Shown: positions 2,997 to 35,898 of the stretch, piece by piece
Position numbering within the stretch: the first letter of the stretch is position 1
Layout: the number at the start of each line of letters is the position of its first letter
DNA from: Shigella phage ESh22
DNA: 64,000 nt
Sequence record: ON528732
Strand: one strand, 5' to 3'
Notes under the pieces: generated by a model
What the model was told of the DNA's origin: nothing
What the model saw: only the letters and a program-made list of their open reading frames with translations
Databases searched by the model: none
Program-made: the position numbers and the translations under genes

Positions 2997-3021
2997 TAAA
3001 AAAGGCTGCCGAAGCAGCCCT
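2997..3021 (-). terminator. intrinsic terminator (GGCTGC-TTCG-GCAGCC + U6) after rIIB
   Basis: GC stem, UUCG loop, U-tract on minus strand immediately 3' of the ORF ending at 3038. Confidence 0.6.
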
Positions 3022-3037
3022 TTAGGATTCTTACTAA

Positions 3038-4147
3038 TTAAACTTCACGTTTACGCTGAGAAATCAGTTCACCAGCAGTACCTACAACTACGTGTAGTGC
3101 TTCTGAACCATCCCACTCTTTAACAACTTCACGACGGCCATTCACGATTGCTGCTACTTCATAACGGGAAGCTCGCATTTTCATATCTTGGTAATCAGTT
3201 GGTACTGATACAACATCTCGTGGGTGTACACGAACTTTCAGGATGGTATCTCCAGAGAAGCTTGTTACATAATCCCAAGCACCAACATGAAGACCCTGAG
3301 AGCAAGTTACGTTACGGTTATTATCAACCATCCAACGTGGCATCTCTACAATGTTACCCAAATCATTAGGAACCTTGCAAGTACGAGAGTCAAACAGTTT
3401 ACCACCACGGCTAGTTACTTTCTTCCAACCAATAATGTAACCTTCTTCGTCAATCTCAACGTCAAGATGTGATACGAATCCCCAAAGTTGTTCTACAGAA
3501 TCTTTGGATGGGTTCTCCATCAGCTTCTCGAAGAACGCTAATAGATGGGTAAATCCTTCATCACCATTCTTCATCATGGTCAGGATACGGTCTACCAGAG
3601 TTGAACGCATCTGAACAGCACCGTAGTACAGGTTATCACCCTTGATAGTGATAGCACCCTGAGTGAAGTTCTCAATAGACTTACGGATATTCATAAGGTC
3701 AAATGCTTTCTTGTACTCACCTGAAACGACTGCTACTTTGATTTCTGCAAAGTTTGGATGAGTTGATTCAACAATCTCAGACTCTGCACCGAAAGTCATG
3801 ATAACAGAATCACCAGTAATCATGTACTCAATCTTGCTGTTACTTTGCATTGCATCATGTAGAGCATTTACTGGTTCGGCTTTGACTTCTTCTTTCTTAA
3901 CAGCTTTTACAACAGTAGTCTTGGAAGTTGCTTTCTTAGAAGTCTTAGCAGCTTTTGCAATAGACTTCAGAGTTTTGGCTAGTTTAGCTGGAGCCTTATC
4001 CAGAGTTGCTTGGTGACGTTCTACAGCACGACCAACAGAACGAGTTGAAGTTTTGTAACGATTTGCAATGGCAGTCTTGGTCAGTTTACCTTCCATTACC
4101 AGTGCATAGATTTCTGCGTCGATTTGTGCTTTAGTTTTAGTAGTCAT
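3038..4147 (-). CDS. rIIB: rIIB-like protein
   Basis: 369 aa, directly downstream of rIIA on the same strand (conserved rIIA-rIIB order); Lys/Ala-rich basic region; assignment mainly by synteny. Confidence 0.5.
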   Translation of the reverse strand: MTTKTKAQIDAEIYALVMEGKLTKTAIANRYKTSTRSVGRAVERHQATLDKAPAKLAKTLKSIAKAAKTSKKATSKTTVVKAVKKEEVKAEPVNALHDAMQSNSKIEYMITGDSVIMTFGAESEIVESTHPNFAEIKVAVVSGEYKKAFDLMNIRKSIENFTQGAITIKGDNLYYGAVQMRSTLVDRILTMMKNGDEGFTHLLAFFEKLMENPSKDSVEQLWGFVSHLDVEIDEEGYIIGWKKVTSRGGKLFDSRTCKVPNDLGNIVEMPRWMVDNNRNVTCSQGLHVGAWDYVTSFSGDTILKVRVHPRDVVSVPTDYQDMKMRASRYEVAAIVNGRREVVKEWDGSEALHVVVGTAGELISQRKREV

Positions 4148-4217: not shown

Positions 4218-6587
4218 TTAAGACCAAGAATTAGTATCTTCTGGGATGTGCTTAACATCAAACCCTAAGAACTTACCAACCTCAACAGGTGATACTTTAT
4301 TCCAGTCTAAGTTAGAAAGCAAGAAGTTTTCTGTGCGACGATGCTCAAAATACTTCTCAATTTTCCTTTTAAGACGGCTCTTAGCTTTGTCAAGAGACTG
4401 TCTCATCTTAGTCTTAGGCCGCATTGCTTTACGTAAGGACTCCAGAACACTGCTAGTACCCTCATAAGCAATAGTCCCAGCAGAGTAAGCCAAACGTCCA
4501 AACATTGCTTCTACAGCGTCTTCGTTACCTTCTAAGAACATCGTAAATTTGATATCCTTGGAGTAAACATAACCTTTAGACTTCTTCTTATTATTAAACG
4601 TAAATTCACGAGAAATAATATGTTTATCAGTCAGGTCACACTTATTTGCAGCCCACTGGTAAATCATGTGACGATGGTAATCTACCCAATGAGAACTGTC
4701 AACATAATCTTTGAAGACTTGTTCAGTTACTTCAATCCAGTCTTCCGGTACTTTCTTCCAGTTTGCTTTACGGAAGACATACACAGACTGCCCAGTTAAC
4801 TCTGTCACGAGTTTAGCAGCAGTCTCTGGAGAACATGAGAACAAGCCACCAATTACTTCATCACTTTGTGCTTTGATGTAAAGTTGTGGTTCTTCAATCT
4901 CATCAAAGTTCTCTTTAACTTCTGAGTAACCTACTTGGTCATCATTGAAGACAAAAGCTTTGTAGAGTTTAACAACTCCACGAGTAATTGTACGTTTCTC
5001 GTAATGGTGCTCTTTAGATGACATATTGTGAACACTTAGCAGACTCTTATCAAGCATGTGTAGCGTTACAAACGCATCAAATTGTTCCTGACTGTTAAAC
5101 AGGAATGCAATACCATTGTAGCGACGGAAGTTTGACTCTTCTTGTTCACGGTCACGGCAAGCACCACGAATAATCTGATTCTTACCAGTTGTCTTTTCAG
5201 TACCATTCTTGTTTCGACGGTCATTGATAAGGAACAGGTAATTGCTCAACTTATCTTTACTCATTGCACCGAAGATACTAAACATTGCAGAGTCTTGTGT
5301 ATGCGTGGCTGAAGTTGCACGAATACGATTCTCAAGACTGCTGTATTTGTAGTATGCAACAGGTTCATACAAGTTACCGATATTAGGAACCTGATTACCA
5401 TCTTTGTCAAGACGGAAGTTACCATTCTCATCTTTTAAGAAGGATGGTGAACCATCAGTCTCAGCCAATTGACCACGGCGAATACCCAAAAGTTTACGTT
5501 CAAGGTCTGCTAAGTTCTGACCTTGCCACTCTAACTTATCATTAACGTGATAGAATATTTCACGAGCATTCTTCCTCATATCATCATAAGCTTGTGCAGC
5601 GTCAATCAACGTGGGTTTGTCTGCAACCTCTTTAATAACATCCTCAACAATAGTTGAAGTAATCTTTTTAACTGCTTCAACAATTTTGTTTTTGGTAGTG
5701 TCGTTCATCTGCAATGCTTCACGAGATGCAGCAATAGCCACTGAACCAATCGGCATGTAGATGTTTACAAGGTCTACAGAACTACGGAAGAACTGAGGCA
5801 GAACCGTTGTAAATTCTGAACCAAGTAATTCACCCATTTCAACAGGGTATGCAATATTCCCCATTACAACGTTGAAGTGAACACTGTTATTGTTTGAGCG
5901 CCAACCCTCTTTGTATTTCATTGCATCATAAACACCATCTTCACGAGAGATTGAAGTCATTGCTGCAAGAATATCGAAGAACTCAATGTTGCAATCTGGT
6001 TTAACTTTAAAGTATGAGAATACATTACTTGCTTCTTCTTGGAACTTAGAAATGCGACTCTCAGAGACTGCTACTCGAACTGCTAAACCATTTGGTTCAG
6101 TTGTTGGGTTAGTAGTCAGTTTAGTAACTTGAGGAATACCATTCTCAAGATATACAGAGTACTTGTTAACAACACCATCAACGTAGCTTGATACAGTGAA
6201 TGATTGAGCAATTGCAAACGGTGACTTTGAACCGATACCCATAGCACCGATGTAGTCATTTGAGTCATTCTTTGTTGACTCTCCGTAGGTCATGTAAAGT
6301 TTCATTACTTTATCATGGGTCAATCCAGTACCAAAGTCTCGAACTTCAAAGTACGGCTCAAAACGAGTTGGTAAGTGAACCAAGAAAGGTTTATCACTAT
6401 TACCTGAATCAATGTGAGCATCTACTGCGTTACAGGATAACTCACGAATTACAGCACGTTCTTTGTAGGTGTATACACCAGAACTCAGAAGACTAAACAT
6501 TTCAGGTGTCATCTTAATCTGAGCTTGAGAAGTTTCTAAAGTGTCTGAACTTTTGATAATCTCTGCGTGGTCATTTACCATACGCAT
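4218..6587 (-). CDS. rIIA: rIIA protein (GHKL/histidine-kinase-like ATPase N-terminal domain)
   Basis: 789 aa; 'IRELSCNAVDAH' (N-box), 'RDFGTGL' (G1 box) and 'GAMGIGSKSPF' (G2 box) match the ATPase motifs recalled for T4 rIIA; followed by an rIIB-like gene. Confidence 0.8.
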   Translation of the reverse strand: MRMVNDHAEIIKSSDTLETSQAQIKMTPEMFSLLSSGVYTYKERAVIRELSCNAVDAHIDSGNSDKPFLVHLPTRFEPYFEVRDFGTGLTHDKVMKLYMTYGESTKNDSNDYIGAMGIGSKSPFAIAQSFTVSSYVDGVVNKYSVYLENGIPQVTKLTTNPTTEPNGLAVRVAVSESRISKFQEEASNVFSYFKVKPDCNIEFFDILAAMTSISREDGVYDAMKYKEGWRSNNNSVHFNVVMGNIAYPVEMGELLGSEFTTVLPQFFRSSVDLVNIYMPIGSVAIAASREALQMNDTTKNKIVEAVKKITSTIVEDVIKEVADKPTLIDAAQAYDDMRKNAREIFYHVNDKLEWQGQNLADLERKLLGIRRGQLAETDGSPSFLKDENGNFRLDKDGNQVPNIGNLYEPVAYYKYSSLENRIRATSATHTQDSAMFSIFGAMSKDKLSNYLFLINDRRNKNGTEKTTGKNQIIRGACRDREQEESNFRRYNGIAFLFNSQEQFDAFVTLHMLDKSLLSVHNMSSKEHHYEKRTITRGVVKLYKAFVFNDDQVGYSEVKENFDEIEEPQLYIKAQSDEVIGGLFSCSPETAAKLVTELTGQSVYVFRKANWKKVPEDWIEVTEQVFKDYVDSSHWVDYHRHMIYQWAANKCDLTDKHIISREFTFNNKKKSKGYVYSKDIKFTMFLEGNEDAVEAMFGRLAYSAGTIAYEGTSSVLESLRKAMRPKTKMRQSLDKAKSRLKRKIEKYFEHRRTENFLLSNLDWNKVSPVEVGKFLGFDVKHIPEDTNSWS

Positions 6588-7164: not shown

Positions 7165-7187
7165 AAAAAGGCTCCCGTAGGAGCCTC
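7165..7187 (-). terminator. intrinsic terminator (GGCTCC-UACG-GGAGCC + U5); element about 45 nt long, near-identical to the one at 1205-1229
   Basis: Hairpin + U-tract on minus strand after the NAMPT-like gene; flanks (TATTATAAG ... AATTTCTGGAGAA-ATG) conserved with the 1205 copy. Confidence 0.6.
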
Positions 7188-7200
7188 TTATAATACTCAG

Positions 7201-9027
7201 TTAGAGTTGTTTGTCAATGTTATTTCGAACATCACGAAGGTTTACATAACCATATGGTTGAGAGTTGCTAAACACCAACTTCAAAGCACATTCTGGATTA
7301 TCCAGTACACCTTCAAACTCTGCAAAGCCAAAGCCGTCTACAGCTTCCAGTTTATCACCGTCACACATAGGAACTACACCACCAAAAGCAGACTTCTTAA
7401 GACCACTGTCAGTTTTAGGGTCTTTTGCCAGCATGATTTCTTCACCGTCCATCTGAGCAAGAGTAGCCTTGACAGCAAATGCAAAGGTATCACGAGTCAG
7501 GTACTGGTAAGTGTATGAACCAACACCAAAGACCACGTTAGAGCTTGCAAAACCTTTGTCAGCAAGACGACCAAGAATCTCATTAGCTCGCTCAAGGGTG
7601 ATAGAATCACCATAGATTAAACCGATGTGCTCATCCAGTACTTTGTAACCTTTACTGTTCACACGACCACCAAAGATGTTGTAGAGAGTTGGGATAGCCC
7701 CATCAATCTCTGCTGTCAGCATACGCTTAACAACAATATTTCCGGTCTTATTAAAATCTTTCAAGTTAACTGTTTCAGCAGTTTCAAAATCTTCTTTATC
7801 AACAACTAACTCATAACCTTCAGAGATAAGCCATGCAGCAAACCCATAACCCATATCCTGCAACTCACAATACTGAATAAGATTCAGGAGTTTATCATTG
7901 TTCGGTGCAATTTCTTTCATATGTTTGTAGAACATACTCTTGGCATTTTCCCACTCAACAGCACGATAACCAGCAACAATGTGAATGGGGTCTCCAGAGT
8001 CTGGACGTATTACCAGTTTACCTTCACGCTTCAGGATAACTTCACGGAGTTCTGGGAGAATCTCTGTAACAGTACGCCAGAAGTTGTAAGTATCTGAAAC
8101 AACACTTGCAATACCAGTTGGATATACGTCTACCAGTAAATGCTCAAAGGTTTTAACCTCACCACGCCAACGTTTTGCATCCAGCAAGCTATCAGACTGC
8201 ATGATGTACTGTGAATGAATATCTTCCTCTGACAAGTCTTTCATATTCCATGAAATGTTTGCGCACATCACAGAGTGTTCAGTAGCTGGTACAGAGTTGC
8301 CGATATCACTTACTTCCATAAACTGACCATAAGCACGTTTAGCAGTGTAGACAGCAGGGAAGCTGTCAGTACCTTTAAAGCTTGTCAGGTGACCTACAGC
8401 GTTAAAAGCATCATCTGTAAAGCCTGACATACCACGCATTGCAAAATCATGACACTGCCAAGGTAAATGGAAGTCATTATCACAGGTTACATCAGCCCAT
8501 TGCTTACAGATGCGTTTGTAGTGTAATGCAATAGTGGCAATCGTAGAAGCTTTCCAAATTTCAGCAGAGAAAGCATCTTCCAGATATCCAGCTACCCAAT
8601 GGAAGCCCTCTACAGTATTCTTGAAGATAATCATTGGAACACGCATTGGAACCACTGTACCCTCTTCTACAGAGTAGACTTCGACTGGCAGATAGCCTAA
8701 ATCGTGAAGTTCTTCCCAATGCTCACGACCAATCGCATCTGCACCGAGAACACCGTTCATGATTTCTAAGATTTCGTCAACAACTTCTTTCTTATCTCGT
8801 TCAAAGAAGGTAGCATTCCAGTGGTCTACTAAGTAATCTTTAACGAAACGTTGAATACCAAAAGCAACTACACCGTCAATATCAAGTGGAGTGTTAAACC
8901 ACTTATCACCACGAGGTGTAAGATTTAGCATCAGATACTGTGTAGCACTTGGGTACTGGTAGATATGGCCAGCTTTGTAAGCATCCGCATTAAGACCTGC
9001 TGGTACTGCATAAACTGATTTAGACAT
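7201..9027 (-). CDS. nicotinamide phosphoribosyltransferase (NAMPT/NadV)-family protein; possibly a nicotinamide ADP-ribose transferase
   Basis: ORF 7201..9069, start trimmed to the ATG at 9027 (MSKSVYAVPAGLNADAYKAGH...) preceded by a GAGAGAGA RBS; about 609 aa, longer than typical NAMPT; family assigned from N-terminal region and overall pattern recalled for NadV/PncB-like proteins. Confidence 0.7.
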   Translation of the reverse strand: MSKSVYAVPAGLNADAYKAGHIYQYPSATQYLMLNLTPRGDKWFNTPLDIDGVVAFGIQRFVKDYLVDHWNATFFERDKKEVVDEILEIMNGVLGADAIGREHWEELHDLGYLPVEVYSVEEGTVVPMRVPMIIFKNTVEGFHWVAGYLEDAFSAEIWKASTIATIALHYKRICKQWADVTCDNDFHLPWQCHDFAMRGMSGFTDDAFNAVGHLTSFKGTDSFPAVYTAKRAYGQFMEVSDIGNSVPATEHSVMCANISWNMKDLSEEDIHSQYIMQSDSLLDAKRWRGEVKTFEHLLVDVYPTGIASVVSDTYNFWRTVTEILPELREVILKREGKLVIRPDSGDPIHIVAGYRAVEWENAKSMFYKHMKEIAPNNDKLLNLIQYCELQDMGYGFAAWLISEGYELVVDKEDFETAETVNLKDFNKTGNIVVKRMLTAEIDGAIPTLYNIFGGRVNSKGYKVLDEHIGLIYGDSITLERANEILGRLADKGFASSNVVFGVGSYTYQYLTRDTFAFAVKATLAQMDGEEIMLAKDPKTDSGLKKSAFGGVVPMCDGDKLEAVDGFGFAEFEGVLDNPECALKLVFSNSQPYGYVNLRDVRNNIDKQL

Positions 9028-9042
9028 AATTTTATCTCTCTC

Positions 9043-9070
9043 AATAGTGGGGCTTTTCAGCCCCTTCAAA
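9043..9070 (-). promoter_or_regulatory. GGGGCUGAAAAGCCCC hairpin element (identical to the core at 4190-4205), no U-tract
   Basis: Exact 16-nt repeat of the hairpin in the rIIB promoter-like element; sits between the Prs-like gene stop and the NAMPT-like gene start. Confidence 0.4.
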
Positions 9071-9075
9071 GTTTA

Positions 9076-9957
9076 TTACTCAATGTTTGCTACAGTTACT
9101 TGTGAGAACTGATTCAGACCACGGTCTTCAGCATCCCCTAGCGAGTTTGTAGTGTAGATATGGTCAATGCCATTGTCAAGAAGATTTTCAACACCTTTTG
9201 AGAAAATCCCATGAGTTACATAAAGTTCTACACGGCTTGCACCAGCTTCACGAAGATGTTTTGCAGCTTCTACAAAGGTACGACCACCATCACAGATATC
9301 ATCGAGAATCATGACAGCTTTACCAGTTAAGTCTACATCATCAAGGATTCGCATACCAGTGATTTCACCAGTTTTCAGATTACGAATCTTAGCCATTGTG
9401 ATATATGGCTTATCAACCTCTTTAGCAGCCTCTTCAGTCTTCTTGGCTGCACCTGCATCTGGAGCCACTAAGAAATCAATACGTGGGTCACTTGCAAAGT
9501 GTACTGCTGCTTCTTTCTGGGGCAGGTTATGGAAGCACTTAAACAAGTTCTCTGCTACGTTGCTGTGAGTATCTAAAGCACATACTGCATCAAACTCCAT
9601 AGCATTTACCAGATTTGCAAAGACTTTCAATGCTGCTGCATCACCTTTAAACATGTGACGGTCATAACGAGCATTTGGTAAGAAGCCAAATACAGCAGTC
9701 TTCATAGTTGATTTCTGAGGAATTAGTTTGTCAATAGCTTCTTTCGCCAGAGCTAAAGCAAACAGAGTATCTTTGTCGTAACCCTGTACAGTGAGGATTA
9801 CATTCTCAATCTGGGAAGCATTCTGTTCAGCATAGGCTACTAGGTCTTCTGAGAAGTTACCACCAATTTCTCCAGACGGAAACTGGATAATGTTGAACTC
9901 TTCTTGGTGAGCACCTTTTTTACGTGAGTGTAACAGTACACTAATAATAGTTTTCAT
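9076..9957 (-). CDS. ribose-phosphate pyrophosphokinase (Prs)-family protein; PRPP synthetase or ADP-ribose pyrophosphate synthetase-like
   Basis: 293 aa; 'FPSGE', 'FGFLPNARYDR', 'LDTHS' and the PRPP-binding loop 'VMILDDICDGGRTF' follow the Prs pattern; immediately upstream of the NAMPT-like gene. Confidence 0.75.
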   Translation of the reverse strand: MKTIISVLLHSRKKGAHQEEFNIIQFPSGEIGGNFSEDLVAYAEQNASQIENVILTVQGYDKDTLFALALAKEAIDKLIPQKSTMKTAVFGFLPNARYDRHMFKGDAAALKVFANLVNAMEFDAVCALDTHSNVAENLFKCFHNLPQKEAAVHFASDPRIDFLVAPDAGAAKKTEEAAKEVDKPYITMAKIRNLKTGEITGMRILDDVDLTGKAVMILDDICDGGRTFVEAAKHLREAGASRVELYVTHGIFSKGVENLLDNGIDHIYTTNSLGDAEDRGLNQFSQVTVANIE

Positions 9958-9969
9958 ATTTAATATCTC

Positions 9970-10263
9970 TCAATCAAAAGTTACAAAGGTTACAGCCATA
10001 GCTGTTTTGCATTTCTTTGGGTCTACAGTATGATAAATCACTAAACAGTTACCTGTACCGTCTGGAACTGGTTTTGTCCAAGTGCGTTCAATGTTTGGCT
10101 CTCCAAACTCTTTGTAGTAGCCATTAGATTGATGGTCTACCATCTCAAGTGCAAGGGCATCTGGAACGTGACCACGTATCATGTACATTTCACAACCGTT
10201 ACCACCTTCACTAATAAGTTCTTTGATTTCCCATTGTTCTCTAGCCATTATAAGTCGCCTCAT
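9970..10263 (-). CDS. hypothetical protein (97 aa)
   Basis: ORF track; same strand and operon context. Confidence 0.45.
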   Translation of the reverse strand: MRRLIMAREQWEIKELISEGGNGCEMYMIRGHVPDALALEMVDHQSNGYYKEFGEPNIERTWTKPVPDGTGNCLVIYHTVDPKKCKTAMAVTFVTFD

Positions 10264-10756
10264 AAACAGTCTCGAACTTCAACAAGAGAGATATTGCCAG
10301 AACTGCATATTCCTTGTCAAGCATTGGTGGCATATTATTTTTAATATATTCTTTTTGTTCTGCATAGGTCATCTTAGGGGCTTCTAGAAGCTTCTCTCCT
10401 TGCTTCTGGTTATCAAGTTGAGTCTGGATAAACCAGTTAGAGCAATGGTGCTCCCCACCCTTTGTAACGGGCTTATGGTGGCCTAATGTGAAAGATTGCT
10501 TACCAGAGTAACGGCAAAGCTTGTTAAGAGTAGCTATAGTGTTCTTTACAACACAGTACTCATAGAGGTTGTCAATAGTGTAGTGAGGGTAATATGCAAA
10601 GAGGGAACTATCACGGTACTTCCCACGATTCCAAAGAACCATGTGATTAGAGTTTGAAGGGTCATATTGGTGAGACTCAATGAACTCTTGACGCTCATCA
10701 AAATCAAGACGTAAAACAGACATTGCAGCAGCACGTTTAAGGTTTGCGTAGTACAT
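10241..10756 (-). CDS. hypothetical protein (171 aa), His-rich patches (GHHKP, GEHHCS)
   Basis: ORF track; no confident motif. Confidence 0.5.
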   Translation of the reverse strand: MYYANLKRAAAMSVLRLDFDERQEFIESHQYDPSNSNHMVLWNRGKYRDSSLFAYYPHYTIDNLYEYCVVKNTIATLNKLCRYSGKQSFTLGHHKPVTKGGEHHCSNWFIQTQLDNQKQGEKLLEAPKMTYAEQKEYIKNNMPPMLDKEYAVLAISLLLKFETVYEATYNG

Positions 10757-10768
10757 GATTTCTCCAAA

Positions 10769-10796
10769 ATAAAAAGGGAACCTTTTACAGTTCCCT
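10769..10796 (-). terminator. intrinsic terminator (GGGAAC-loop-GUUCCC + U5)
   Basis: Hairpin + U-tract on minus strand between ORF 10809..11120 and ORF 10241..10756. Confidence 0.55.
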
Positions 10797-10808
10797 AATC
10801 ATATACTT

Positions 10809-11120
10809 TTACTGTGTGACTTTCAACACTTTGAAGAAACCTTCTTCACCGATGTTGCTTGTAACGTAATCTGTAGGTTTGATTGAATGGTTCAGACATA
10901 CAATCTTCTTAGCTTTCTTGTCATAAGTCAGCTTAAGTTGTTTTACCTCTTTGTCACTAGCTAGTGACTCATTGTACATCTTTACAGCTTTCTTAAACGG
11001 GATATATTCACCACCAAAAGCTAGAAAACCTGTGCCACAATAATGTGCATTATATTTCTCAACCATAAATTGGCACAGAACTGCAATCTGAATCTTACGA
11101 GTGTTATAAATCTTTTCCAT
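10809..11120 (-). CDS. hypothetical protein (103 aa)
   Basis: ORF track. Confidence 0.45.
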   Translation of the reverse strand: MEKIYNTRKIQIAVLCQFMVEKYNAHYCGTGFLAFGGEYIPFKKAVKMYNESLASDKEVKQLKLTYDKKAKKIVCLNHSIKPTDYVTSNIGEEGFFKVLKVTQ

Positions 11121-11132
11121 GTTGGGTATCCC

Positions 11133-11405
11133 TTATTTGCTACGTTTACGGTTGCGAGCTTTTTTAGCTGCACGTTTAATTGCTGCTGCACCAGACTGAC
11201 GGTGAGCTTGCTTCTTACCACCTTTACCACGTCCAACGTGAATGTAAGGCTGCTGTTCAATCTGGCTTGCAAGAACCTGTGCAACTGCTGAAGCATCTAC
11301 ACCGACCTGCTTACCTGTCATAGAAACAATTGCTGCTGCTTTTGCCAGTGCCGCTAAGAAACCCGCTTTCATGTTACTAAAAATTCCCATTTTAATCTCT
11401 CTCAT
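11133..11405 (-). CDS. hypothetical protein with strongly basic C-terminus (90 aa)
   Basis: ORF track; C-terminal KRAAKKARNRKRSK. Confidence 0.4.
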   Translation of the reverse strand: MREIKMGIFSNMKAGFLAALAKAAAIVSMTGKQVGVDASAVAQVLASQIEQQPYIHVGRGKGGKKQAHRQSGAAAIKRAAKKARNRKRSK

Positions 11406-11726
11406 TTAAAGTTTAATACAGAACTTATTAAGTTCTTCTTCAGTAACTGCGACAACTTTATCATCAACACGTAAGTTTGTCGCGTAAAAATTTGAGAAAT
11501 GTGCTTTGTATTTTACTTTAAATACTCCAGCATCCTCAATACATTTCAATGCTTCCATACCAGTGGAGTCAAACAGACTTTTAGTATAGACTTTCCACTC
11601 TTCAAGGGTTTCTGGATTTACTTTGTAGCTACCAAATAGTGACATGTTACAGTACGACATAACAAACTCACCGCGTTTGAATCCACCGCTACTCTGCTCT
11701 CCATTGACAGTCACCTTGCCAGCCAT
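11406..11726 (-). CDS. hypothetical protein (about 106 aa)
   Basis: ORF 11406..11807 trimmed to the ATG at 11726 (MAGKVTVNGEQ) preceded by GGAGAAAAG; upstream part overlaps nrdG. Confidence 0.4.
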   Translation of the reverse strand: MAGKVTVNGEQSSGGFKRGEFVMSYCNMSLFGSYKVNPETLEEWKVYTKSLFDSTGMEALKCIEDAGVFKVKYKAHFSNFYATNLRVDDKVVAVTEEELNKFCIKL

Positions 11727-12174
11727 ATTCTTTTCTCCACAAGTTTTGGTTGTCTGAACCACGATACGGTTTATTCGTTGGTTTAGAAGCATCATACTTA
11801 CCATCAATCACTACGTCAACATATTTCATCACCTCTTCATTGATTTTTTCATGAAGCTGAAAGCCTGTCCAAAGCCATATAGACTTTTCTGGGTAAACAG
11901 TTTTAATACGTTTACATATGTTGGTGACTTCTTGAATGTTTCTCTCATCCAGAGGCTCTCCACCAAGTATTGACAGCCCACTAATAGCATTATCATTCAT
12001 TAGCTGCATAATGCCATAAAGGTTTGCGTAAGTAAACTCTTTTCCTGCATTAAACTTCCAAGATTCCCTGTTAAAGCAACCCTCACAGTGGTGTCGGCAT
12101 CCAGCTACAAAAAGACTGACACGAGCACCTTCACCGTTAGCTGTATCAAATTTTCGTATTTCCATGTAATTCAT
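11689..12174 (-). CDS. nrdG: anaerobic ribonucleotide reductase activating protein (radical-SAM activase)
   Basis: 161 aa; CxxxCxxC cluster 'CRHHCEGC' near the N-terminus; same region as nrdD. Confidence 0.7.
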   Translation of the reverse strand: MNYMEIRKFDTANGEGARVSLFVAGCRHHCEGCFNRESWKFNAGKEFTYANLYGIMQLMNDNAISGLSILGGEPLDERNIQEVTNICKRIKTVYPEKSIWLWTGFQLHEKINEEVMKYVDVVIDGKYDASKPTNKPYRGSDNQNLWRKEYGWQGDCQWRAE

Positions 12175-12566
12175 TAAATCACCTCAAAATCTACCTTCTC
12201 ATATTTAACAACATACTCTTCACAGTGTTCTTTGATGAAGTCTGTTAGCAATTCATCTTCCTGTGCTCTTGTTATTAAAGCTACGTATTTGGGATTCATG
12301 ATTTGCTGGTGGCTGTGAATCTCGAAGCAACCTACATCTGTACCATCGTCATCAGACCAAGTACCGTGAAGGACTACAACTAACCCGTCAAGTTCTTGAG
12401 GAAGTTGTAGATTGGAATCAATAGCATCTGCAAAGACCTCTGAAGTAATCAAGCACTCTGCTGAGATGTAGAAAGTGCTTCCACGACGATGTTCTTTAGA
12501 AGAACTCCCAAACTCAAGAGCATACTCTACTAAGAACTCTTTCATATCTTTAGTTAGTTTTATCAT
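12174..12566 (-). CDS. hypothetical protein (about 130 aa)
   Basis: ORF 12174..12581 trimmed to the ATG at 12566 (MIKLTK) with AGGAAA RBS. Confidence 0.45.
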   Translation of the reverse strand: MIKLTKDMKEFLVEYALEFGSSSKEHRRGSTFYISAECLITSEVFADAIDSNLQLPQELDGLVVVLHGTWSDDDGTDVGCFEIHSHQQIMNPKYVALITRAQEDELLTDFIKEHCEEYVVKYEKVDFEVI

Positions 12567-12660
12567 TTTTATTTCCTGCAAAGTGTGTGTAAAGTAATCC
12601 TAAACAGAATCCTAGTGTAGTCGAACCTATTAGTGTTATCAATAAAAATTCTTTTATCAT

Positions 12661-12918
12661 TTAGTACCACCATATTGACTGATTGTTATCACAAGTATAC
12701 AAGTACTCTGTACCAGTTTGTGGGACTAGGATTGTTGTATTCCCTGCCTGAACTGACACATAATAAGTGTACTCTCTACTCTGTGAAGTTTGTTGACAGT
12801 GGTTTGCCTCCATCCAGATAGAAGTGTGATAAGCATAGTATGCAGCATAACCTATCATAGCTACTAAGAGAATGCCAATAACCCACATCCAAAAGTTATG
12901 CCAGAAGTCATAACTCAT
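12661..12918 (-). CDS. small membrane protein (85 aa), aromatic-rich transmembrane segment
   Basis: ORF track; WMWVIGILLVAMIGYAAYYAY hydrophobic segment. Confidence 0.45.
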   Translation of the reverse strand: MSYDFWHNFWMWVIGILLVAMIGYAAYYAYHTSIWMEANHCQQTSQSREYTYYVSVQAGNTTILVPQTGTEYLYTCDNNQSIWWY

Positions 12919-13097
12919 GGTGTTACCTCTTGATAGACTTTCCAGAACTCACCTGTTAACTTCTCATCGTACCAAGTGCCATTTGAAGTCTGCCAAGAGA
13001 CTACATAGCCATTGTCAAGAATGTATTTCAGTTTTGCTTCAAGAGTTGTGCCACCAACTTTACCAACAAACAGGTAGACTTTCCCAACTTCCAACAT
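12915..13097 (-). CDS. hypothetical protein (60 aa)
   Basis: ORF track; ATG at 13095-13097 follows a terminator-RBS block. Confidence 0.4.
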   Translation of the reverse strand: MLEVGKVYLFVGKVGGTTLEAKLKYILDNGYVVSWQTSNGTWYDEKLTGEFWKVYQEVTP

Positions 13098-13111
13098 TTT
13101 ATTCTCTCCAA

Positions 13112-13153
13112 TAAAAAAGGTAGTGCAAGCCTATCAAGACCTACACTACCTTG
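13112..13153 (-). terminator. intrinsic terminator (long imperfect hairpin + U6) after nrdD
   Basis: AAGGUAGUG...CACUACCUU stem followed by UUUUUU on minus strand, directly 3' of nrdD. Confidence 0.5.
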
Positions 13154-13161
13154 TCAATTAC

Positions 13162-15306
13162 TTACATAGATTTTCTGTCTTTAATCTCTGCAATTTTTGC
13201 ATCGTTCATTCTTGAGGTTCCCTTGATTTTAGTCCAACCAAGATACCCACAAACACGGTTAATAACAGAGATATCATGTGAGTGACACTTAGGACATTCT
13301 TCAACATCTGCACTTGGACGGTGACCACAATTTTCACAGATTGCTAAGTCAAAGTTAACACCTTGATAGAAGCCCTTACCCATACCCCTTGTAACACATG
13401 CTTCAATAGCTTTATGATTCTCTGGGTTAGCAATACGAACATATTGAATATGCCCTCCATTGCAGGAATGGAAGAAAGGTTCTTCTAAGTCTTGCTTCTC
13501 AAATGGTGTAATATCTGCTGCTACGTTCATGTGGAAGCTGTTTGTAAAGTACTCTTTATCGGAGACACCTTTAATAACTCCAAACATGTGACGAAACTGC
13601 TTCAATTGCGTACCACAAAGGCTCTCAGCAGGTGTACCATAAAGGGCATATAAGAATCCATCTTCTTGCTTAAACTGCTCCAGCTTGGTGTTTAGGTGCT
13701 CCATAACTTGATGTGCAATACCTTCTGAAGATGACTCATGAAGTCTACCTTCTCCAGCCAAAACAGAAAGCTCATCTAGTGCGGTAACACCAAAAGAAGC
13801 TGTGAAGGATTTCACAGTATCCCAACCAATCTTGTCAGTTGGTTTCTTATGACCTTTGTACAGTCCACCTTGAGTAAACGCCAGAGGGTTAGAACTTGCT
13901 GGCATGTTAGCAATCATTTCATAACGCTTCTGGTGGAATGCTCGAATCATTTCAAGGTACTTGTCAATCTCTTCAAAGAAATCAAGTTGATTCTCCTTAG
14001 CATACTGATAAATCATTGGCAAGTTCAGTGAGACAGCACCAATGTTAGCACGTCCTACATAGAACTCTCCACCATCTTCATCAAGGTATGGTGACAGATA
14101 AGCCCTGCAACCCATCGGTGAAATCACTTTACCCGAGCGTTTAAAAGCATCTGCTGCAGCACCATGACCAGATACACTCAGGAAGTCTGGGTACATTGCT
14201 TTAGAGCAACACTCAATAGCTTTTCCATAAAGTTGACCTTGCCAGATATCCAGAGAGTGTCTTTTCTCATCATAGATATATACCAGTTTAGGGAATACTA
14301 CTGGTTTCTTGGCTTTACCTTGACCATTCATACGAACATCCAAGATAGTCTTAGCAATCATATATTGTAGACGGTTATCATGATTTGATATATCTGGTTC
14401 AAGTAATCCAAATGTTAAAGTTGTAAAAGCAAAGTCACCACGACTGCAAGGGACAGTGTTAAGTTTCATCTCAAGGGATTGAAAGCCCTGAGTTAACTCA
14501 ATTTGTAACTGGTTCTTGACATAGTGGTAAATCTTGTCTTGAGGGATTCCATAAGCAATAGCCATTTCCTCATGATACTTCTGAGACTTCTTAGCATATG
14601 GTACTAAAATCTTATCAATCTCTGGGATAGTGAATCCACCAAATTGCTGTGCAGTTGCTGATAGAACAACGTCACCGATAACCTGTAAAGCTGACAGAAC
14701 AGACTTTGGTTCACAGTATTCAATACCAGACATTTCAAAGCCACCTTCCAAGACTTTGCCAATATCAAATAAGCAACAGTTGATTCCACCAAATACCAAG
14801 TCTCTTAGGTCGTGAATGTAGATAAATCCATCTTCAATAGCTCTTATTTCTTCTGGTGTTAAGTGATACTGTTTAAAGATTTCTTTTGTCAGGTATCCAC
14901 GAATAATAGAACCCTTTGTAGAGATTAAGCTACTGTCAAAGTTAGCATTCTCACGGTCACCTAAGAAGAGAGTGTCTTTAGTCTTCTGATACAGATAATC
15001 CCAATTCTGTGCCACCTCTTTACGGTAGTTACGATACGTTGAGTATGACTCATAAATCTCATGGTTAGTGACAGCCAGAGCACCTTCTACAATACTGTGA
15101 ATGTCATCTACAGAGATTAGTAAAGCATTCTGATTAGATGCCTTTGCAAGAATCCTCTTGAAAGCTGCTTCTAAAGCATGGATAACTTCTAGTGGAAGTT
15201 CTTTGTAGCCAACACGATTAGCTGATTTCTCAACGGCTGTCAAGATTTTGTTAATATCTGGTTTTTCCAGTGAGCCGTTCTTTTTGATAATTTGTACTTT
15301 AACCAT
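13162..15306 (-). CDS. nrdD: anaerobic ribonucleoside-triphosphate reductase (class III, glycyl-radical)
   Basis: 714 aa; C-terminal Cys cluster (CENCGH...CPKC) and glycyl-radical motif 'RVCGYLG'. Confidence 0.85.
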   Translation of the reverse strand: MVKVQIIKKNGSLEKPDINKILTAVEKSANRVGYKELPLEVIHALEAAFKRILAKASNQNALLISVDDIHSIVEGALAVTNHEIYESYSTYRNYRKEVAQNWDYLYQKTKDTLFLGDRENANFDSSLISTKGSIIRGYLTKEIFKQYHLTPEEIRAIEDGFIYIHDLRDLVFGGINCCLFDIGKVLEGGFEMSGIEYCEPKSVLSALQVIGDVVLSATAQQFGGFTIPEIDKILVPYAKKSQKYHEEMAIAYGIPQDKIYHYVKNQLQIELTQGFQSLEMKLNTVPCSRGDFAFTTLTFGLLEPDISNHDNRLQYMIAKTILDVRMNGQGKAKKPVVFPKLVYIYDEKRHSLDIWQGQLYGKAIECCSKAMYPDFLSVSGHGAAADAFKRSGKVISPMGCRAYLSPYLDEDGGEFYVGRANIGAVSLNLPMIYQYAKENQLDFFEEIDKYLEMIRAFHQKRYEMIANMPASSNPLAFTQGGLYKGHKKPTDKIGWDTVKSFTASFGVTALDELSVLAGEGRLHESSSEGIAHQVMEHLNTKLEQFKQEDGFLYALYGTPAESLCGTQLKQFRHMFGVIKGVSDKEYFTNSFHMNVAADITPFEKQDLEEPFFHSCNGGHIQYVRIANPENHKAIEACVTRGMGKGFYQGVNFDLAICENCGHRPSADVEECPKCHSHDISVINRVCGYLGWTKIKGTSRMNDAKIAEIKDRKSM

Positions 15307-15322: not shown

Positions 15323-15345
15323 AAAAAGGTCTCCGAAGAGACCCT
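15323..15345 (-). terminator. intrinsic terminator (GGGUCUC-UUCG-GAGACC + U5) directly before the nrdD RBS
   Basis: Hairpin + U-tract on minus strand; about 17 nt upstream of the nrdD ATG. Confidence 0.55.
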
Positions 15346-15349
15346 TATT

Positions 15350-15556
15350 TTAATTTTTGTTTAAGAGATTATCAAGGAAGTTTTTAACCTTGGTACTCCA
15401 TCCAAACTGAATGTCTAGAATTTCAATGATTAGCCATACTAGCATAAACCCGAACATTAAACCTTGTTTAAAGTCAATGAACATGTTCAGCAAGAAAATT
15501 ACCCAGAGAAGCATAGGAGCATCTTCTTTGAAGCCTTTAAAGATTTTATCCAGCAT
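15350..15556 (-). CDS. small membrane protein (68 aa)
   Basis: ORF track; two hydrophobic segments. Confidence 0.45.
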   Translation of the reverse strand: MLDKIFKGFKEDAPMLLWVIFLLNMFIDFKQGLMFGFMLVWLIIEILDIQFGWSTKVKNFLDNLLNKN

Positions 15557-27421: not shown

Positions 27422-27452
27422 AAAAAGCCCCCAATTAAGGAGGCTTGGGGAA
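27422..27452 (-). terminator. intrinsic terminator (CCCCAA-loop-UUGGGG + U5) before the kinase RBS
   Basis: Hairpin + U-tract on minus strand. Confidence 0.5.
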
Positions 27453-27462
27453 AACAATTGTA

Positions 27463-28266
27463 TTAGTGAATCTGGTTAGAGTCCAGTTTTTCTTTTTCAG
27501 AGATAGCCTGAAGAGTCTCAACAAACTCATCACCGAAGTGGATAGCAATTTTCTCTTGGAGTACTGCTGCACCAGTCTGCATAATGACTTCGCGTAGTGC
27601 TTCACCACTTACATCACCAGCAATCTGTTCAACAAACTCGATAGGTGCATCAATCAGTTGAGCGACTTCAAACAGAGCGTGGATACCCATTACAGTGATG
27701 ATTGATGGGACCAATGCGGTAAGTTTAACCTGAATCTCATCAAGTCCATGTTCAGCTTCACGCGCAACAACCTCTTTAAGTTGCTCACTAGTAAGGGCCA
27801 CCATCTCCAGCACTCGCTCAAAGATATCTACGAATCCCCAATCAAGTTGTTCATAGCGTGGAAGTTTATCTTGAACACGCTTCTCAAGAACAGCCATAAC
27901 ACTTGCAATTGAGTTGATAATCAGTTCAAAGGTAGCATCTTCAGAGAAGTTAAGGATTCCTTCTTTCTCTTCCTCAGAAAGAACTTTGAAGTCACCAGTC
28001 TGCATGTTGTCAAAGATATAACCAGCAAAGGCATCTACACCAACCGCTACAGATGCCAGAGCTAGTTTACGGTCACTTAGAAGGAGTTTAACTTGCGAGC
28101 GAAACGATGACTCATCAGAGATATCTCCATTAACCTGATATGATTCAGGCATTACCTTGGAACTAAATGTGTTGCTACGCATTACAATAGCAAGACTTTC
28201 AATTGTATTGAGCATAAAGTTGCTATCAATACCTTTTGAGGACAGCATTTCATTTACAGTAGTCAT
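27463..28266 (-). CDS. hypothetical protein (267 aa)
   Basis: ORF track; first or second gene of the minus-strand transcription unit leaving the divergent region. Confidence 0.5.
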   Translation of the reverse strand: MTTVNEMLSSKGIDSNFMLNTIESLAIVMRSNTFSSKVMPESYQVNGDISDESSFRSQVKLLLSDRKLALASVAVGVDAFAGYIFDNMQTGDFKVLSEEEKEGILNFSEDATFELIINSIASVMAVLEKRVQDKLPRYEQLDWGFVDIFERVLEMVALTSEQLKEVVAREAEHGLDEIQVKLTALVPSIITVMGIHALFEVAQLIDAPIEFVEQIAGDVSGEALREVIMQTGAAVLQEKIAIHFGDEFVETLQAISEKEKLDSNQIH

Positions 28267-31710: not shown

Positions 31711-31911
31711 ATGACTATTTCAGAAATTGAAGTTCAACTGCAATGTGCTGGATATTCTCAAAGTGAGATTGAGGCTATGTGCATCATCATTTGCAGTAGC
31801 CATAAGCACCTCAAGCTTTCTAATGAAAATCTTTTCAAGGTTGATATTTTTATCGCTGGGGGCAAGATTATCAAGGATAAGACAGGCTACCTTAAAGGTG
31901 AACGTCTATGA
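31711..31911 (+). CDS. hypothetical protein (66 aa)
   Basis: ORF track; AGGAGA RBS. Confidence 0.45.
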   Translation: MTISEIEVQLQCAGYSQSEIEAMCIIICSSHKHLKLSNENLFKVDIFIAGGKIIKDKTGYLKGERL

Positions 31912-32120
31912 GCCACCGTGGAAGAACCCATCTCGCCATGATGCAAGGTGCTTCAAAAGATACTATCAAGAATCGGAAGAAAACTCTTTTTGACAGAATG
32001 AATAGACTCATTGATAATGCGAGCCTACCTAACTCTGAAAAGGTTTTCTTGAAAGGGAATCTGAAGAGTATTGCACAGGAACTTATTGACATTGAATTTT
32101 GGAGAAATCAAAATGAGTAA
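31908..32120 (+). CDS. hypothetical protein (70 aa)
   Basis: ORF track; ATGA start/stop overlap with the upstream gene. Confidence 0.45.
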   Translation: MSHRGRTHLAMMQGASKDTIKNRKKTLFDRMNRLIDNASLPNSEKVFLKGNLKSIAQELIDIEFWRNQNE

Positions 32121-32361
32121 AGAGCAAGAAGCAATAGATATCTTTAAAAATGACGATAAGTCAATAGCTTATATCTCAGAAGCTTGGTGCAGAGGGCTAG
32201 GTTATGACTGGTATCTTTTCCTATGTGCTAAAAAGGATGTTAAACCAGTTGATGAAACCAGATTCAAAGAACTGTATAATATCTGTCAAGAAGGTTATGA
32301 AGAACATTACGAAGGTTCTTTGAATCCTGTAAATTCAAAAGCTTCAGATTTATTTTATTGA
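32113..32361 (+). CDS. hypothetical protein (82 aa)
   Basis: ORF 32071..32361 trimmed to the ATG at 32113 (MSKEQEA) with GGAGAAA RBS. Confidence 0.45.
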   Translation: MSKEQEAIDIFKNDDKSIAYISEAWCRGLGYDWYLFLCAKKDVKPVDETRFKELYNICQEGYEEHYEGSLNPVNSKASDLFY

Positions 32362-32371
32362 GAGGTTTGAA

Positions 32372-32617
32372 ATGTTAAAATTATTGATACCAGCTTTAGT
32401 AGTCCTACTGGTTGGATGTAACCCTTCTTATGAGAATAAGGATGCTTCTTACAGACTTCCTCCAGAAATGCAAGACTGCAAGATTTATAAACTTAATGGT
32501 GATGCCATTAGCAGGGATGTTATTGTAGTTCGCTGCCCAAATTCTCAGACTACAACTTCTTACAAGTATGGAAAGAATAGTCAGTCACACACCACAGTTT
32601 TTGATGGAGGATATTGA
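32372..32617 (+). CDS. small lipoprotein (81 aa)
   Basis: Signal peptide with lipobox 'LLVG-C'; GAGAGG RBS. Confidence 0.5.
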   Translation: MLKLLIPALVVLLVGCNPSYENKDASYRLPPEMQDCKIYKLNGDAISRDVIVVRCPNSQTTTSYKYGKNSQSHTTVFDGGY

Positions 32618-32618
32618 T

Positions 32619-32825
32619 ATGCAGGTTCTGGTAAACTTTATCTATAAGTATGAAAACATCTTCAGCACTATGACTGAAGGTCAACGCAATCCAGTTATCC
32701 CACGAGAAGGGGAGACTGTTGAGATTAATGATTGGAACCACAGAGTTGCAGAGGTCAAGCATAAACTTAAAGATGATTATGACCACCAAGTTGTAAATGT
32801 GTATTTAGAAGGTAAGTGGCAATGA
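32619..32825 (+). CDS. hypothetical protein (68 aa)
   Basis: ORF 32568..32825 trimmed to the ATG at 32619 (MQVLVNF) with GGAGGA RBS. Confidence 0.4.
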   Translation: MQVLVNFIYKYENIFSTMTEGQRNPVIPREGETVEINDWNHRVAEVKHKLKDDYDHQVVNVYLEGKWQ

Positions 32826-32916
32826 GAATCTTACATATCATCTCTGAAGATTTTGGAGGGTGCTCTTGGCACTCATTTTTCACAAAAGGTTGTCTAGCTT
32901 GTGAGGCACGTAATAA

Positions 32917-34017: not shown

Positions 34018-34174
34018 TTACACTATGGGGATTGCAATTGCAGTAGTGATTATCGGTATCTTATTTTTCTCTTGGTTATACATGTAGAAAGTTGTTGACA
34101 TGAGATTCTTAGTGGGTATACTAGCAATATACAAGATATTATATAGGAACCCACTAGTTAGTTTGGAGGTAATT

Positions 34175-34555
34175 ATGAAAAAGCTTGCACTATGTCTCTT
34201 TGCAGTACTAAGCTTCAATGCTTATGCGGTTATGCCAAATATGGACTACGGTAAAGTTAAACTGGAGTCTTGTGAGCTTTCTCAAAAGATTGTTTCTAAG
34301 TCTGGAGAGTTAACTAAACCAATCACTCAAGAAACTTTTCAGGAAATGACAGACCGTACAACTGACCTCATCTACCACACTATGGGTGGTTACTACAACG
34401 ATGTGGCTGATATGATGGTTTCTGAGAATATTGATGTGCTAAGTTCTGAACAGATTTCTGAAACTAAAGCTGTAGAAGAACGTGTTACACAGTCTGTTTT
34501 AGATGGGTTTGAGTACTTTATCATTAACCGTCACTGCATGGGTCTGCCACAATGA
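34175..34555 (+). CDS. secreted/periplasmic hypothetical protein (126 aa)
   Basis: ORF 34100..34555 trimmed to the ATG at 34175 with GGAGGT RBS; signal peptide MKKLALCLFAVLSFNAYA. Confidence 0.45.
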   Translation: MKKLALCLFAVLSFNAYAVMPNMDYGKVKLESCELSQKIVSKSGELTKPITQETFQEMTDRTTDLIYHTMGGYYNDVADMMVSENIDVLSSEQISETKAVEERVTQSVLDGFEYFIINRHCMGLPQ

Positions 34556-35897: not shown

Positions 35898-35898
35898 C

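Follow-up and report, generated by a model that had tools for sequence, protein, structure and literature searches.

A block of conserved small genes beside the NARP1 cassette of Shigella phage ESh22, including a predicted HNH-type ortholog of the retron-Ec67 counter gp77

What do the small genes between the NAD+ cassette and nrdD of Shigella phage ESh22 contribute to the phage? The 64,000-nucleotide stretch of sequence record ON528732 analysed here (the window) holds eight short open reading frames (ORFs), designated A to E and G to I, which are interspersed with nrdG in this interval (Table 1). The original prediction, made without database searches, regarded this cluster, together with a second group of small plus-strand genes, as a likely seat of anti-defence and host-takeover factors. 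Our analyses suggest that the block lies in a dispensable accessory arm, that its small ORFs are real genes, and that they fall into two predicted transcription units, the second of which would be a multi-purpose counter-defence operon combining NARP1 with ORF B; we put the probability of this reading at roughly 60%. The observation itself was confirmed, and its anti-defence and host-takeover interpretation is partly supported.

Megablast of window positions 9000-14000 returned Shigella phage ESh21 (Ounavirinae, Mooglevirus) at 99% identity across the entire query, together with about 250 further Felix-O1-type phages at lower identity, which identifies the window phage, as judged by nucleotide similarity, as a Mooglevirus within this well-sampled Felix-O1-type group. 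In Bas63 (Escherichia phage JohannRWettstein), B aligns with bas63_0077 at 79.5% identity over 171/171 residues, the two proteins being of equal length. The Bas63 gene order (g78-g77-g76-g75-g74-nrdG) matches that of the window, and the neighbours of B are the same. B is the ortholog of Bas63 gp77, which is reported to counter retron Ec67. Loss of gp77 in Bas63 reduces plating efficiency 10-fold on a retron-Ec67 host, and the defect is complemented in trans (PhageMaP study, bioRxiv 10.1101/2024.10.10.617714). Supplementary fitness tables of the same study list values of -0.29, -0.63 and -0.51 for g77 on the Ec67 host and of about +0.8 to +1.2 on S17, MG1655, TerY-P, AVAST4 and Sir2-HerA. On the Ec67 host, g71-g75 and g78-g80 remain positive, and g69 and g76 are noisy. 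The Ec67 fitness effect is specific to g77. The EVADES tables do not list gp77, and Ounavirinae are covered neither by HIDEN-SEQ nor by the transposon mutagenesis paper. The B protein is only 92% identical to its ESh21 counterpart, versus 98-100% for all neighbouring genes, and this marks a local mosaic patch. Other assemblies encode proteins with 98% identity to B (P0001 and P0002).

The conserved residues of B indicate what kind of protein it may be. A family-specific N-terminal helical domain is followed by a predicted HNH (beta-beta-alpha-metal) core around H93, N107 and N116, with the motif FTLGHHKPVTKGGEHHCSNWFIQTQLDNQKQG. The histidines that had led the original prediction to single out one His-rich protein belong to this motif, and its statement that none of the ORFs could be assigned by motif proved wrong for B. 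Written as a pattern, the motif reads G-H-[HY]-x-P-x3-G-G-x-H-x3-N-W-x-I-Q-x4-N. Among 14 members of the family, with identities as low as 23%, H93, G100, G101 and N107 are invariant and P96, H103, W108, Q111 and N116 nearly so; the N-terminal domain has invariant R22, D62, E66 and N78. An AlphaFold2 model shows strands at residues 89-93 and 108-112 and a helix at 113-121, with the N-terminal 88 residues predicted to be helical. Profile searches matched B to a PHROG HNH family (E 2.9e-5), to the HNH region of IscB in NCBIfam (E 0.0016) and, weakly and over the same residues, to PDB 4h9d ('HNH endonuclease'). Pfam HNH profiles matched three members of the B family (E 0.0085-0.035); B itself gave no Pfam HNH match at E below 0.5, and HNH scores were under the curated thresholds. 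A full HMMER search of 1.84 billion representatives recovered only 18 B-family proteins, all of similar size except P0053, a triple HNH-domain protein (Pfam HNH_5, E 8e-13) that aligns to positions 84-146 of the B profile, with the motif lining up with its HNH repeats. Based on the repeated HNH profile matches and the conserved motif, B can be placed among the HNH/His-Me-finger proteins. It has the motif of nucleases of this type (Pfam HNH and HNH_5, the HNH domains of IscB and Cas9, PDB 4h9d), and a beta-beta-alpha topology is predicted for it. Unlike them, it has no Cys4 zinc site, forms a small family of its own and possesses a conserved N-terminal helical domain. We conclude that B is probably a small, distinctive HNH/His-Me-finger protein, for which we infer nuclease activity and a substrate.

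Other identities for B were considered. PhageMaP names gp77 a 'GIY-YIG catalytic domain protein*', the asterisk marking a name taken from BLASTp (bioRxiv 10.1101/2024.10.10.617714). No GIY-YIG family appeared among the Pfam matches of B, of 10 close relatives or of 10 distant ones, even when E values up to 1-10 were admitted. With no profile match, an N-terminal half predicted to be helical and a BLAST-propagated name, a GIY-YIG identity for gp77 and B is unsupported. Residues 16-45 of B (window 10620-10709) contain a motif, LDFDERQEFIESHQYDPSNSN, that resembles the domain motif of staphylococcal protein A. This match reached E 1.8e-9 only against engineered tandem repeats, as the sum of sub-significant repeats; since the similarity fades with a broader profile and is non-significant for single domains, it is probably due to chance. 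A 259-residue protein (P0013) encoded on one 1.3-kb metagenomic contig consists of a truncated C (DUF7390) fused in frame to a full-length B. Apparently a deletion removed the tail of C and the intergenic cassette. As a single variant on one short contig, the fusion was rejected as a Rosetta-stone argument.

B and A are followed by Adps and Namat, the 'Prs' and 'NAMPT' of the original prediction, with A directly upstream of Adps. Both enzymes carry the Pfam domains expected of Prs-like and NAMPT-like proteins, and their similarity to Bas63 gp79 and gp80 (Table 1) identifies the pair as NARP1, orthologous to the experimentally characterised NARP1 of Bas63. Namat and Adps of Bas63 rebuild NAD+ from ADP-ribose and nicotinamide and thereby defeat NAD+-depleting defences (bioRxiv 10.1101/2024.02.11.579819), and PhageMaP confirmed this counter-defence activity (bioRxiv 10.1101/2024.10.10.617714). 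In the raw data of that study for the Sir2-HerA host, g79 scores -2.1 to -3.0 and g80 -3.0 to -3.3, whereas g77 scores +0.75 to +0.87 and g78 +0.10 to +0.38. Because g77 and g78 are not required on this host, A and B are best described as co-located anti-defence cargo and not as demonstrated pathway components; a role for them within the NARP1 pathway was rejected, as their Bas63 orthologs are dispensable for NARP1 action against Sir2-HerA. Extra genes are also found in the NARP1 operons of NARP1-AP, which has an additional Macro-domain phosphatase, and of phages with RyDEP inserted in NARP1. B and A differ from these in having neither a Macro domain nor a RyR domain. The mechanically called Namat ORF begins at TTG (622 amino acids), and ESh21 is annotated with an 1827-nucleotide coding sequence (608 amino acids), which suggests that the true start is probably an internal ATG near 9027. 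Namat exceeds typical NAMPTs in length.

How far B and NARP1 belong together can be judged from other phages. A tblastn search found the B family in 428 phage records, which include Ounavirinae of Escherichia, Salmonella, Shigella, Citrobacter, Erwinia and Pectobacterium, and also Stephanstirmvirinae such as phage muut, where the gene adjoins a helicase. B occupies the same syntenic slot in Felixounavirus, Mooglevirus, Suspvirus, Kolesnikvirus and the unclassified Pectobacterium phage Wc4-1. Erwinia phage Roscha1 (Kolesnikvirus), which has no nrdDG, carries a B homolog, a 98-amino-acid zinc-ribbon protein, Adps and Namat. In Wc4-1 the order is an H-like gene, nrdG, a C-like gene, a B-like gene, a gap with an unannotated Cys-rich ORF, Adps and Namat, with identities of 37% for B, 44% for Adps and 50% for Namat. 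The order B-X-Adps-Namat is kept across Ounavirinae genera, with B homologs 37-44% identical in Roscha1 and Wc4-1, and the association of B with NARP1 is old.

The gene at position X varies. The Roscha1 zinc ribbon (5479-5775 of locus L010) is a homolog of the window's zinc-ribbon protein (42 bits), and A was rejected as a homolog of the Roscha1 slot-X protein, which matches that zinc ribbon instead. The zinc-ribbon ORF of the window lies 26 kb away from the B-Adps locus, beside DHFR. The Cys-rich ORF in the slot of Wc4-1 showed no significant similarity to A or to the Roscha1 zinc ribbon. A DNA adenine methylase, annotated as two ORFs, replaces most of A and B in Salmonella phage SP4 (SHa-2019; 3004-3913 of locus L007) and is flanked by remnants of the C-terminus of A and of B. 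Both A and B are absent from BPS17L1 (locus L008). Judged from these arrangements, the A/B locus appears to be a plastic, interchangeable cargo slot adjoining NARP1.

Are the eight small ORFs genes at all? As claimed, they lie at the stated coordinates and are 60-171 amino acids long. All are on the minus strand, and nrdG, encoding the anaerobic ribonucleotide reductase activase, sits among them as a housekeeping or auxiliary metabolic gene. Each of the eight matched a PHROG family (E 1e-25 to 1e-90), and all are annotated in ESh21 (99% identical), Sf17 and Michonne. Proportions of nonsynonymous (pN) and synonymous (pS) differences were calculated by the Nei-Gojobori method against orthologs in Sf17, Michonne, mistaenkt and Bas63. 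In every small ORF, pN was well below pS, and the ratio of nonsynonymous to synonymous substitution rates (dN/dS) was 0.05-0.2 in most comparisons, similar to nrdG, Adps and Namat. Selection was loosest on E (dN/dS up to 0.57); for G, pN was 0.31-0.40 and pS was saturated at 0.77-0.86. Taken together, the PHROG matches, the annotation in relatives and the low pN relative to pS indicate that the small ORFs are real protein-coding genes. They are tightly packed: the start of A overlaps the end of B by 8 nucleotides, the long form of E overlaps the 3′ end of nrdG by 38 nucleotides, and the stop of G overlaps the start of nrdG. The gene nrdD is intact in the window (13162-15306, 714 amino acids), whereas in Bas63 (7719-10605 of locus L003) it is a two-piece joined coding sequence broken by a putative homing-endonuclease gene; it is split in BPS17L1 and SP4 as well. 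In the gap between G and H (12569-12673, minus strand), ESh21 is annotated with an ORF of 34 amino acids, which is short, has no obvious Shine-Dalgarno (SD) sequence and is possibly spurious. An Rfam scan returned tRNAs and nothing else, all of them at 62-64 kb, and the block has no DNA repeats of any significance. The seven tRNA genes cluster at the end of the window (62164-63843, minus strand; Rfam tRNA, 39-58 bits).

Conserved cassettes, each pairing a promoter with a hairpin, lead us to predict two sigma70-type transcription units, one comprising I, H, G, nrdG, E, D and C and the other B, A, Adps and Namat. A scan of the coding strand placed terminator-like hairpins at 13152-13117, 10796-10775 and 7189-7166. 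A strict cassette search of the window gave four sites, with one more on relaxed settings, versus about 1.1 expected in Markov shuffles. Five relatives share the cassettes that precede B and follow Namat; the one before B is kept in ESh21, Sf17, Michonne, mistaenkt and Bas63, with the same architecture in Roscha1, and the one after Namat in Bas63, mistaenkt and BPS17L1. Terminators are annotated in the Michonne record at positions equivalent to the B-upstream and nrdD/I elements. The sigma70-like promoters, as the only indication, suggest early expression of the block. The arrangement resembles the hyperplastic regions of T4-type phages, where small, fast-evolving ORFs between core genes are flanked by promoter-early stem-loop (PeSL) cassettes (PMC2839356, PMC4122927). 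However, those phages belong to a different subfamily and the sequences are unrelated, and here only gene replacements at the B/A slot were seen.

Table 1. Coordinates of the small-gene block, the flanking cassette, the promoter-hairpin elements and the plus-strand island in the window.
Feature	Position	Strand	Description
ORF A	9970-10248	-	92 amino acids; acidic, isoelectric point (pI) 5.1
ORF B	10241-10756	-	171 amino acids
ORF C	10809-11120	-	103 amino acids; basic, pI 9.3
ORF D	11133-11405	-	90 amino acids, or 85 from ATG at 11390
ORF E	11406-11726	-	106 amino acids, or 84 from 11660
nrdG	11689-12174	-	Pfam Fer4_12, E 3e-44; phrog_626, E 1e-67
ORF G	12174-12566	-	130 amino acids; pI 4.5, net charge -15
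ORF H	12661-12918	-	85 amino acids
ORF I	12915-13097	-	60 amino acids
Adps	9076-9957	-	first NARP1 enzyme; 82% identical to Bas63 gp79
Namat	7201-9069	-	second NARP1 enzyme; 74% identical to Bas63 gp80
Cassette upstream of B	10775-10826	-	sigma70-like TTGAAA-17-TATGAT abutting a stem-loop with T-run, then SD and ATG of B
Cassette downstream of Namat	7166-7217	-	TTGACA-16-TATTAT and stem-loop; closes B-A-Adps-Namat unit
nrdD/ORF I element	13117-13156	-	TTGACA box, then 16-bp stem-loop and T-run; predicted nrdD terminator and start of I-to-C unit
Further composite cassette	15326-15375	-	-10 box abutting stem-loop with T-run, before SD and ATG
Further composite cassette	27429-27485	-	-10 box abutting stem-loop with T-run, before SD and ATG
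Small ORF after DNA polymerase	31711-31911	+	PHROG without assigned function
Small ORF after DNA polymerase	31908-32120	+	PHROG without assigned function
Small ORF after DNA polymerase	32113-32361	+	PHROG without assigned function
Small ORF after DNA polymerase (lipoprotein)	32372-32617	+	PHROG without assigned function
Small ORF after DNA polymerase	32619-32825	+	PHROG without assigned function
ATP-dependent DNA ligase	32917-34017	+	Pfam DNA_ligase_A_M, E 1.6e-8; 86% identical to Bas63 gp39; housekeeping
Secreted protein	34175-34555	+	signal peptide
ORF	34552-34755	+	part of seven-ORF run 34175-36689
XRE helix-turn-helix protein	34748-35047	+	Pfam HTH_3, 34.6 bits (cut-off 23), E 2e-8; 65% identical to Bas63-035
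ORF	35050-35409	+	part of seven-ORF run 34175-36689
ORF	35394-35897	+	part of seven-ORF run 34175-36689
ORF	35899-36420	+	part of seven-ORF run 34175-36689
Zinc ribbon	36417-36689	+	CxxC...CxxC; ortholog of Bas63 g32 ('lar*')

With respect to the remaining seven small ORFs, fitness data come from PhageMaP. Most Bas63 knock-outs in g69-g81 have fitness values above zero on laboratory E. coli, those of g74 and g76 being noisy, and the authors call the segment 'uniformly non-essential' (bioRxiv 10.1101/2024.10.10.617714). The Bas63 orthologs of the small ORFs other than B show no defence-specific phenotype on the Ec67 or Sir2-HerA hosts in these data. The proposed anti-defence cluster therefore holds in part: the block is dispensable in Bas63, it abuts NARP1 and it contains the gp77 ortholog, but no evidence links A, C, D, E, G, H or I to anti-defence. 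ORF A matches phrog_4726 (E 1e-56; dN/dS 0.07-0.2) and occurs in 230 phage records, all of Felixouna-, Moogle- or Susp-type, at identities of at least 66%; searches of Pfam, NCBIfam and PDB gave no match for it. In Bas63, the A ortholog g78 is non-essential and is not required on the Ec67 or Sir2-HerA hosts either (bioRxiv 10.1101/2024.10.10.617714). ORF C is a DUF7390 protein (Pfam PF24116, 60.6 bits versus a cut-off of 28.4, E 2.4e-16; also phrog_4462) with dN/dS of 0.12-0.17. Its homologs form 16 clusters, all of DUF7390 (PF24116) and about 103 amino acids long, and the named ones are of Ounavirinae type.

ORF D begins with an amphipathic, alanine-rich stretch and ends in a very basic tail (pI 11.7, net charge +16), and is the basic-tailed protein of the original prediction. 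Its start is probably the ATG at 11390, which gives 85 amino acids. It matches phrog_4425 (E 5e-48) and is the best conserved of the small ORFs, with 90-98% identity in most relatives (98% in Sf17 and Michonne, 90% in Bas63; dN/dS 0.05-0.1 there). D is found solely in Felix-O1-type records, except for one labelled Staphylococcus phage SA1, and its Bas63 ortholog, g75, is non-essential (bioRxiv 10.1101/2024.10.10.617714). Two membrane proteins had been claimed for the block. Only H clearly fits this description, with one N-terminal transmembrane helix (19-residue hydropathy 1.91 at residues 9-27) followed by a C-terminal domain of 55 amino acids with two Cys; the N-terminal helix of D is only moderately hydrophobic (1.36). 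H belongs to phrog_8826 (dN/dS 0.14-0.18). Sf17, Michonne, BPS17L1 and Wc4-1 have it, Bas63 and mistaenkt do not, and different small membrane proteins occupy its position in Bas63. E (phrog_5082, E 3e-44) diverges fast, being 33-68% identical in relatives with dN/dS of 0.1-0.57, and its PDB search matched only designed propeller repeat proteins, with no significant single stretch. Single-sequence PDB searches with A, C, G and D gave no match. G is a very acidic, compact alpha/beta protein with invariant His, Arg, Lys and Glu residues. Its confident structural model bears a weak fold resemblance to BECR-type RNase toxins, such as CdiA-CT of Klebsiella pneumoniae 342 (PDB 6cp9); G may resemble or mimic an RNase. 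I (phrog_24391, E 3.5e-25; dN/dS 0.13) looks like a small beta-rich protein from its sequence. Sf17 and Michonne carry versions with 59-64% identity, whereas Bas63, mistaenkt, SP4 and BPS17L1 lack the gene; among the relatives examined it is restricted to the Mooglevirus group.

Based on these observations, we propose how the block may work. Its small genes would be vertically inherited and would diverge at uneven rates, several of them faster than the neighbouring enzymes, and they would serve host interaction rather than core replication. Adps and Namat would rebuild NAD+ from ADP-ribose and nicotinamide, as their Bas63 orthologs do. Most likely, the N-terminal helical domain of B would recognise one component of the retron. 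This could be the msDNA or its RNA/DNA precursor, the target that the PhageMaP authors proposed for gp77 (bioRxiv 10.1101/2024.10.10.617714), or it could be the RT-Toprim effector complex. The HNH site, with H93 as general base together with N107 and with N116 as metal ligand, would then cut this component and so disarm the retron. B and NARP1 would act independently. H would be a small inner-membrane protein, and A, C, D, E, G, H and I would be conserved accessory proteins.

A quite different explanation is that B is a selfish HNH homing endonuclease, that the other small ORFs are neutral ORFan cargo and that the Ec67 phenotype is incidental. Homing endonucleases are indeed common in these genomes, one being inside nrdD of Bas63 and another beside its polymerase; many records label a gene of the block 'HNH homing endonuclease', and some relatives lack B and A or have another gene in their place. 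A homing gene would be expected to be sporadic in distribution, inserted in or beside a conserved target gene and under relaxed selection. However, B is syntenic, occurring in the same slot across several Ounavirinae lineages; its divergence parallels that of its neighbours, with identity falling along with that of Adps, Namat and nrdG (37-44% versus 44-50%), and its dN/dS is 0.08-0.13, the other small ORFs being under purifying selection too. That B travelled with NARP1 across the subfamily speaks against homing. In B, no DNA-binding module of a known kind was detected, and its N-terminal domain (R22, D62, E66, N78) is family-specific. The 'homing endonuclease' labels themselves sit on C, where 'HNH/homing endonuclease' is a propagated name that traces to one record and has no domain support. 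We regard this explanation as quite improbable and favour B as a retron counter carried with NARP1.

It also seems unlikely, if less so, that E and G, and perhaps D and C as well, assist the anaerobic ribonucleotide reductase or nucleotide metabolism as accessory factors, with roles such as reductant delivery, assembly or regulation. This would account for the interleaving of small genes with nrdG and nrdD, for the overlaps of the G stop and of E with the start and end of nrdG, and for the C-like and H-like genes that flank nrdG even in Wc4-1; moreover, PhageMaP groups g74, the E ortholog, with glutaredoxin g65 as having distinct essentiality in BW25113. On the other hand, no similarity to flavodoxin, thioredoxin, NrdH/I or another reductase helper was found in Pfam, NCBIfam or PDB, Bas63 g72 lies between the G ortholog and nrdG, and these proteins evolve much faster than nrdG (33-57% versus 80-93% identity). 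The label of g74 as a ribonucleotide reductase activating protein is a BLAST artefact of the overlap. A host-takeover role, in which D, G, H, I and A would be toxic effectors that shut off host functions and not inhibitors of dedicated defences, is similarly doubtful. It draws on the strongly basic, nucleic-acid-binding-like tail of D, the most conserved small ORF; on the weak fold similarity of G to RNase toxins and its invariant His, Arg, Lys and Glu residues; and on H as a small membrane protein and the early expression that sigma70-like promoters suggest.

Several points weigh against a dispensable accessory arm with a counter-defence operon. The anti-retron phenotype was measured in Bas63, where loss of gp77 has a modest, 10-fold effect that is described in a single preprint. 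The transcription units rest on consensus scans only, with 4 strict cassettes versus about 1 expected. For seven of the eight small ORFs, the explanation says little beyond 'accessory', and their interleaving with nrdG and nrdD could mean that some serve nucleotide metabolism. A bolder version is, in our view, a long shot: B-X-Adps-Namat would be a composite anti-defence operon in which B, a new small HNH subfamily, destroys retron msDNA or another nucleic-acid immune component, slot X (filled by A in enterobacterial phages, by a Lar-like zinc ribbon in those of Erwinia and, in SP4, by a DNA methylase in place of both A and B) encodes a further defence inhibitor, and G founds a family of acidic proteins with an RNase-toxin-like fold that many phages direct against RNAs of the host or of its defences.

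The plus-strand island (31711-36689) had been offered as a second source of such factors. Its lipoprotein, secreted protein, XRE-type helix-turn-helix protein and zinc ribbon are all present, and a DNA ligase lies there too. Four of the five small ORFs after the DNA polymerase have Bas63 orthologs (g44, g45, g42 and g41); no Bas63 counterpart was found for 32113-32361 or 35394-35897. The lipoprotein has the lipobox LVGC, and homologs of its mature part occur in 569 phage records, all annotated as hypothetical, from phages of Vibrio (290 records), Acinetobacter, Klebsiella, Aeromonas and Pseudomonas; by these matches it belongs to what appears to be a widespread phage lipoprotein family. Mutations in Bas63-035, the counterpart of the XRE-type protein, allow escape from DRT7, and its co-expression with DRT7 is toxic (bioRxiv 10.64898/2026.04.18.719102), which together mark it as a defence trigger. 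In Bas63, fitness is about -1.2 for g35, -1.0 for g34 and -0.8 for g32, and about 0 for g33 and g37 (PhageMaP, bioRxiv 10.1101/2024.10.10.617714). The takeover and anti-defence interpretation is weakened here, as g34, g35 and g32 are important for growth and the XRE ortholog triggers DRT7 and is not an inhibitor of it. Membership of the zinc ribbon in the Lar family was rejected (Pfam PF14354, 18.0 versus 28.6 bits; NCBIfam TIGR03655, 17.3 versus 39.6). Bas63 g32 has a Lar score of 13.8 bits, and the best NCBIfam match of the window protein is another CxxC family (ECs_2282), also under its cut-off. Both proteins share the CxxC...CxxC ribbon with the Lar restriction-alleviation protein and match Lar only weakly. 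The island is a mixture of replication, growth-important regulatory and accessory genes.

In conclusion, the region is an ordinary, largely already-described accessory and counter-defence arm of a Felix-O1-type phage, and no new principle emerges from it. What this study adds is the reassignment of the gp77 family to HNH-type proteins, the subfamily-wide B-X-Adps-Namat arrangement with its interchangeable slot, the promoter-hairpin cassettes and a confident model of G. Two propagated names are corrected, GIY-YIG on the gp77 family and 'HNH' misplaced on the DUF7390 gene next to it. Together, A, C, D, E, G, H and I form a short list of conserved, non-essential genes for targeted screens. Few retron inhibitors are known so far. 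If confirmed, a compact anti-retron protein of HNH type would help in the study of retron immunity as well as in equipping therapeutic phages; transfer of a Bas63 counter into T7 is reported by the PhageMaP authors (bioRxiv 10.1101/2024.10.10.617714).

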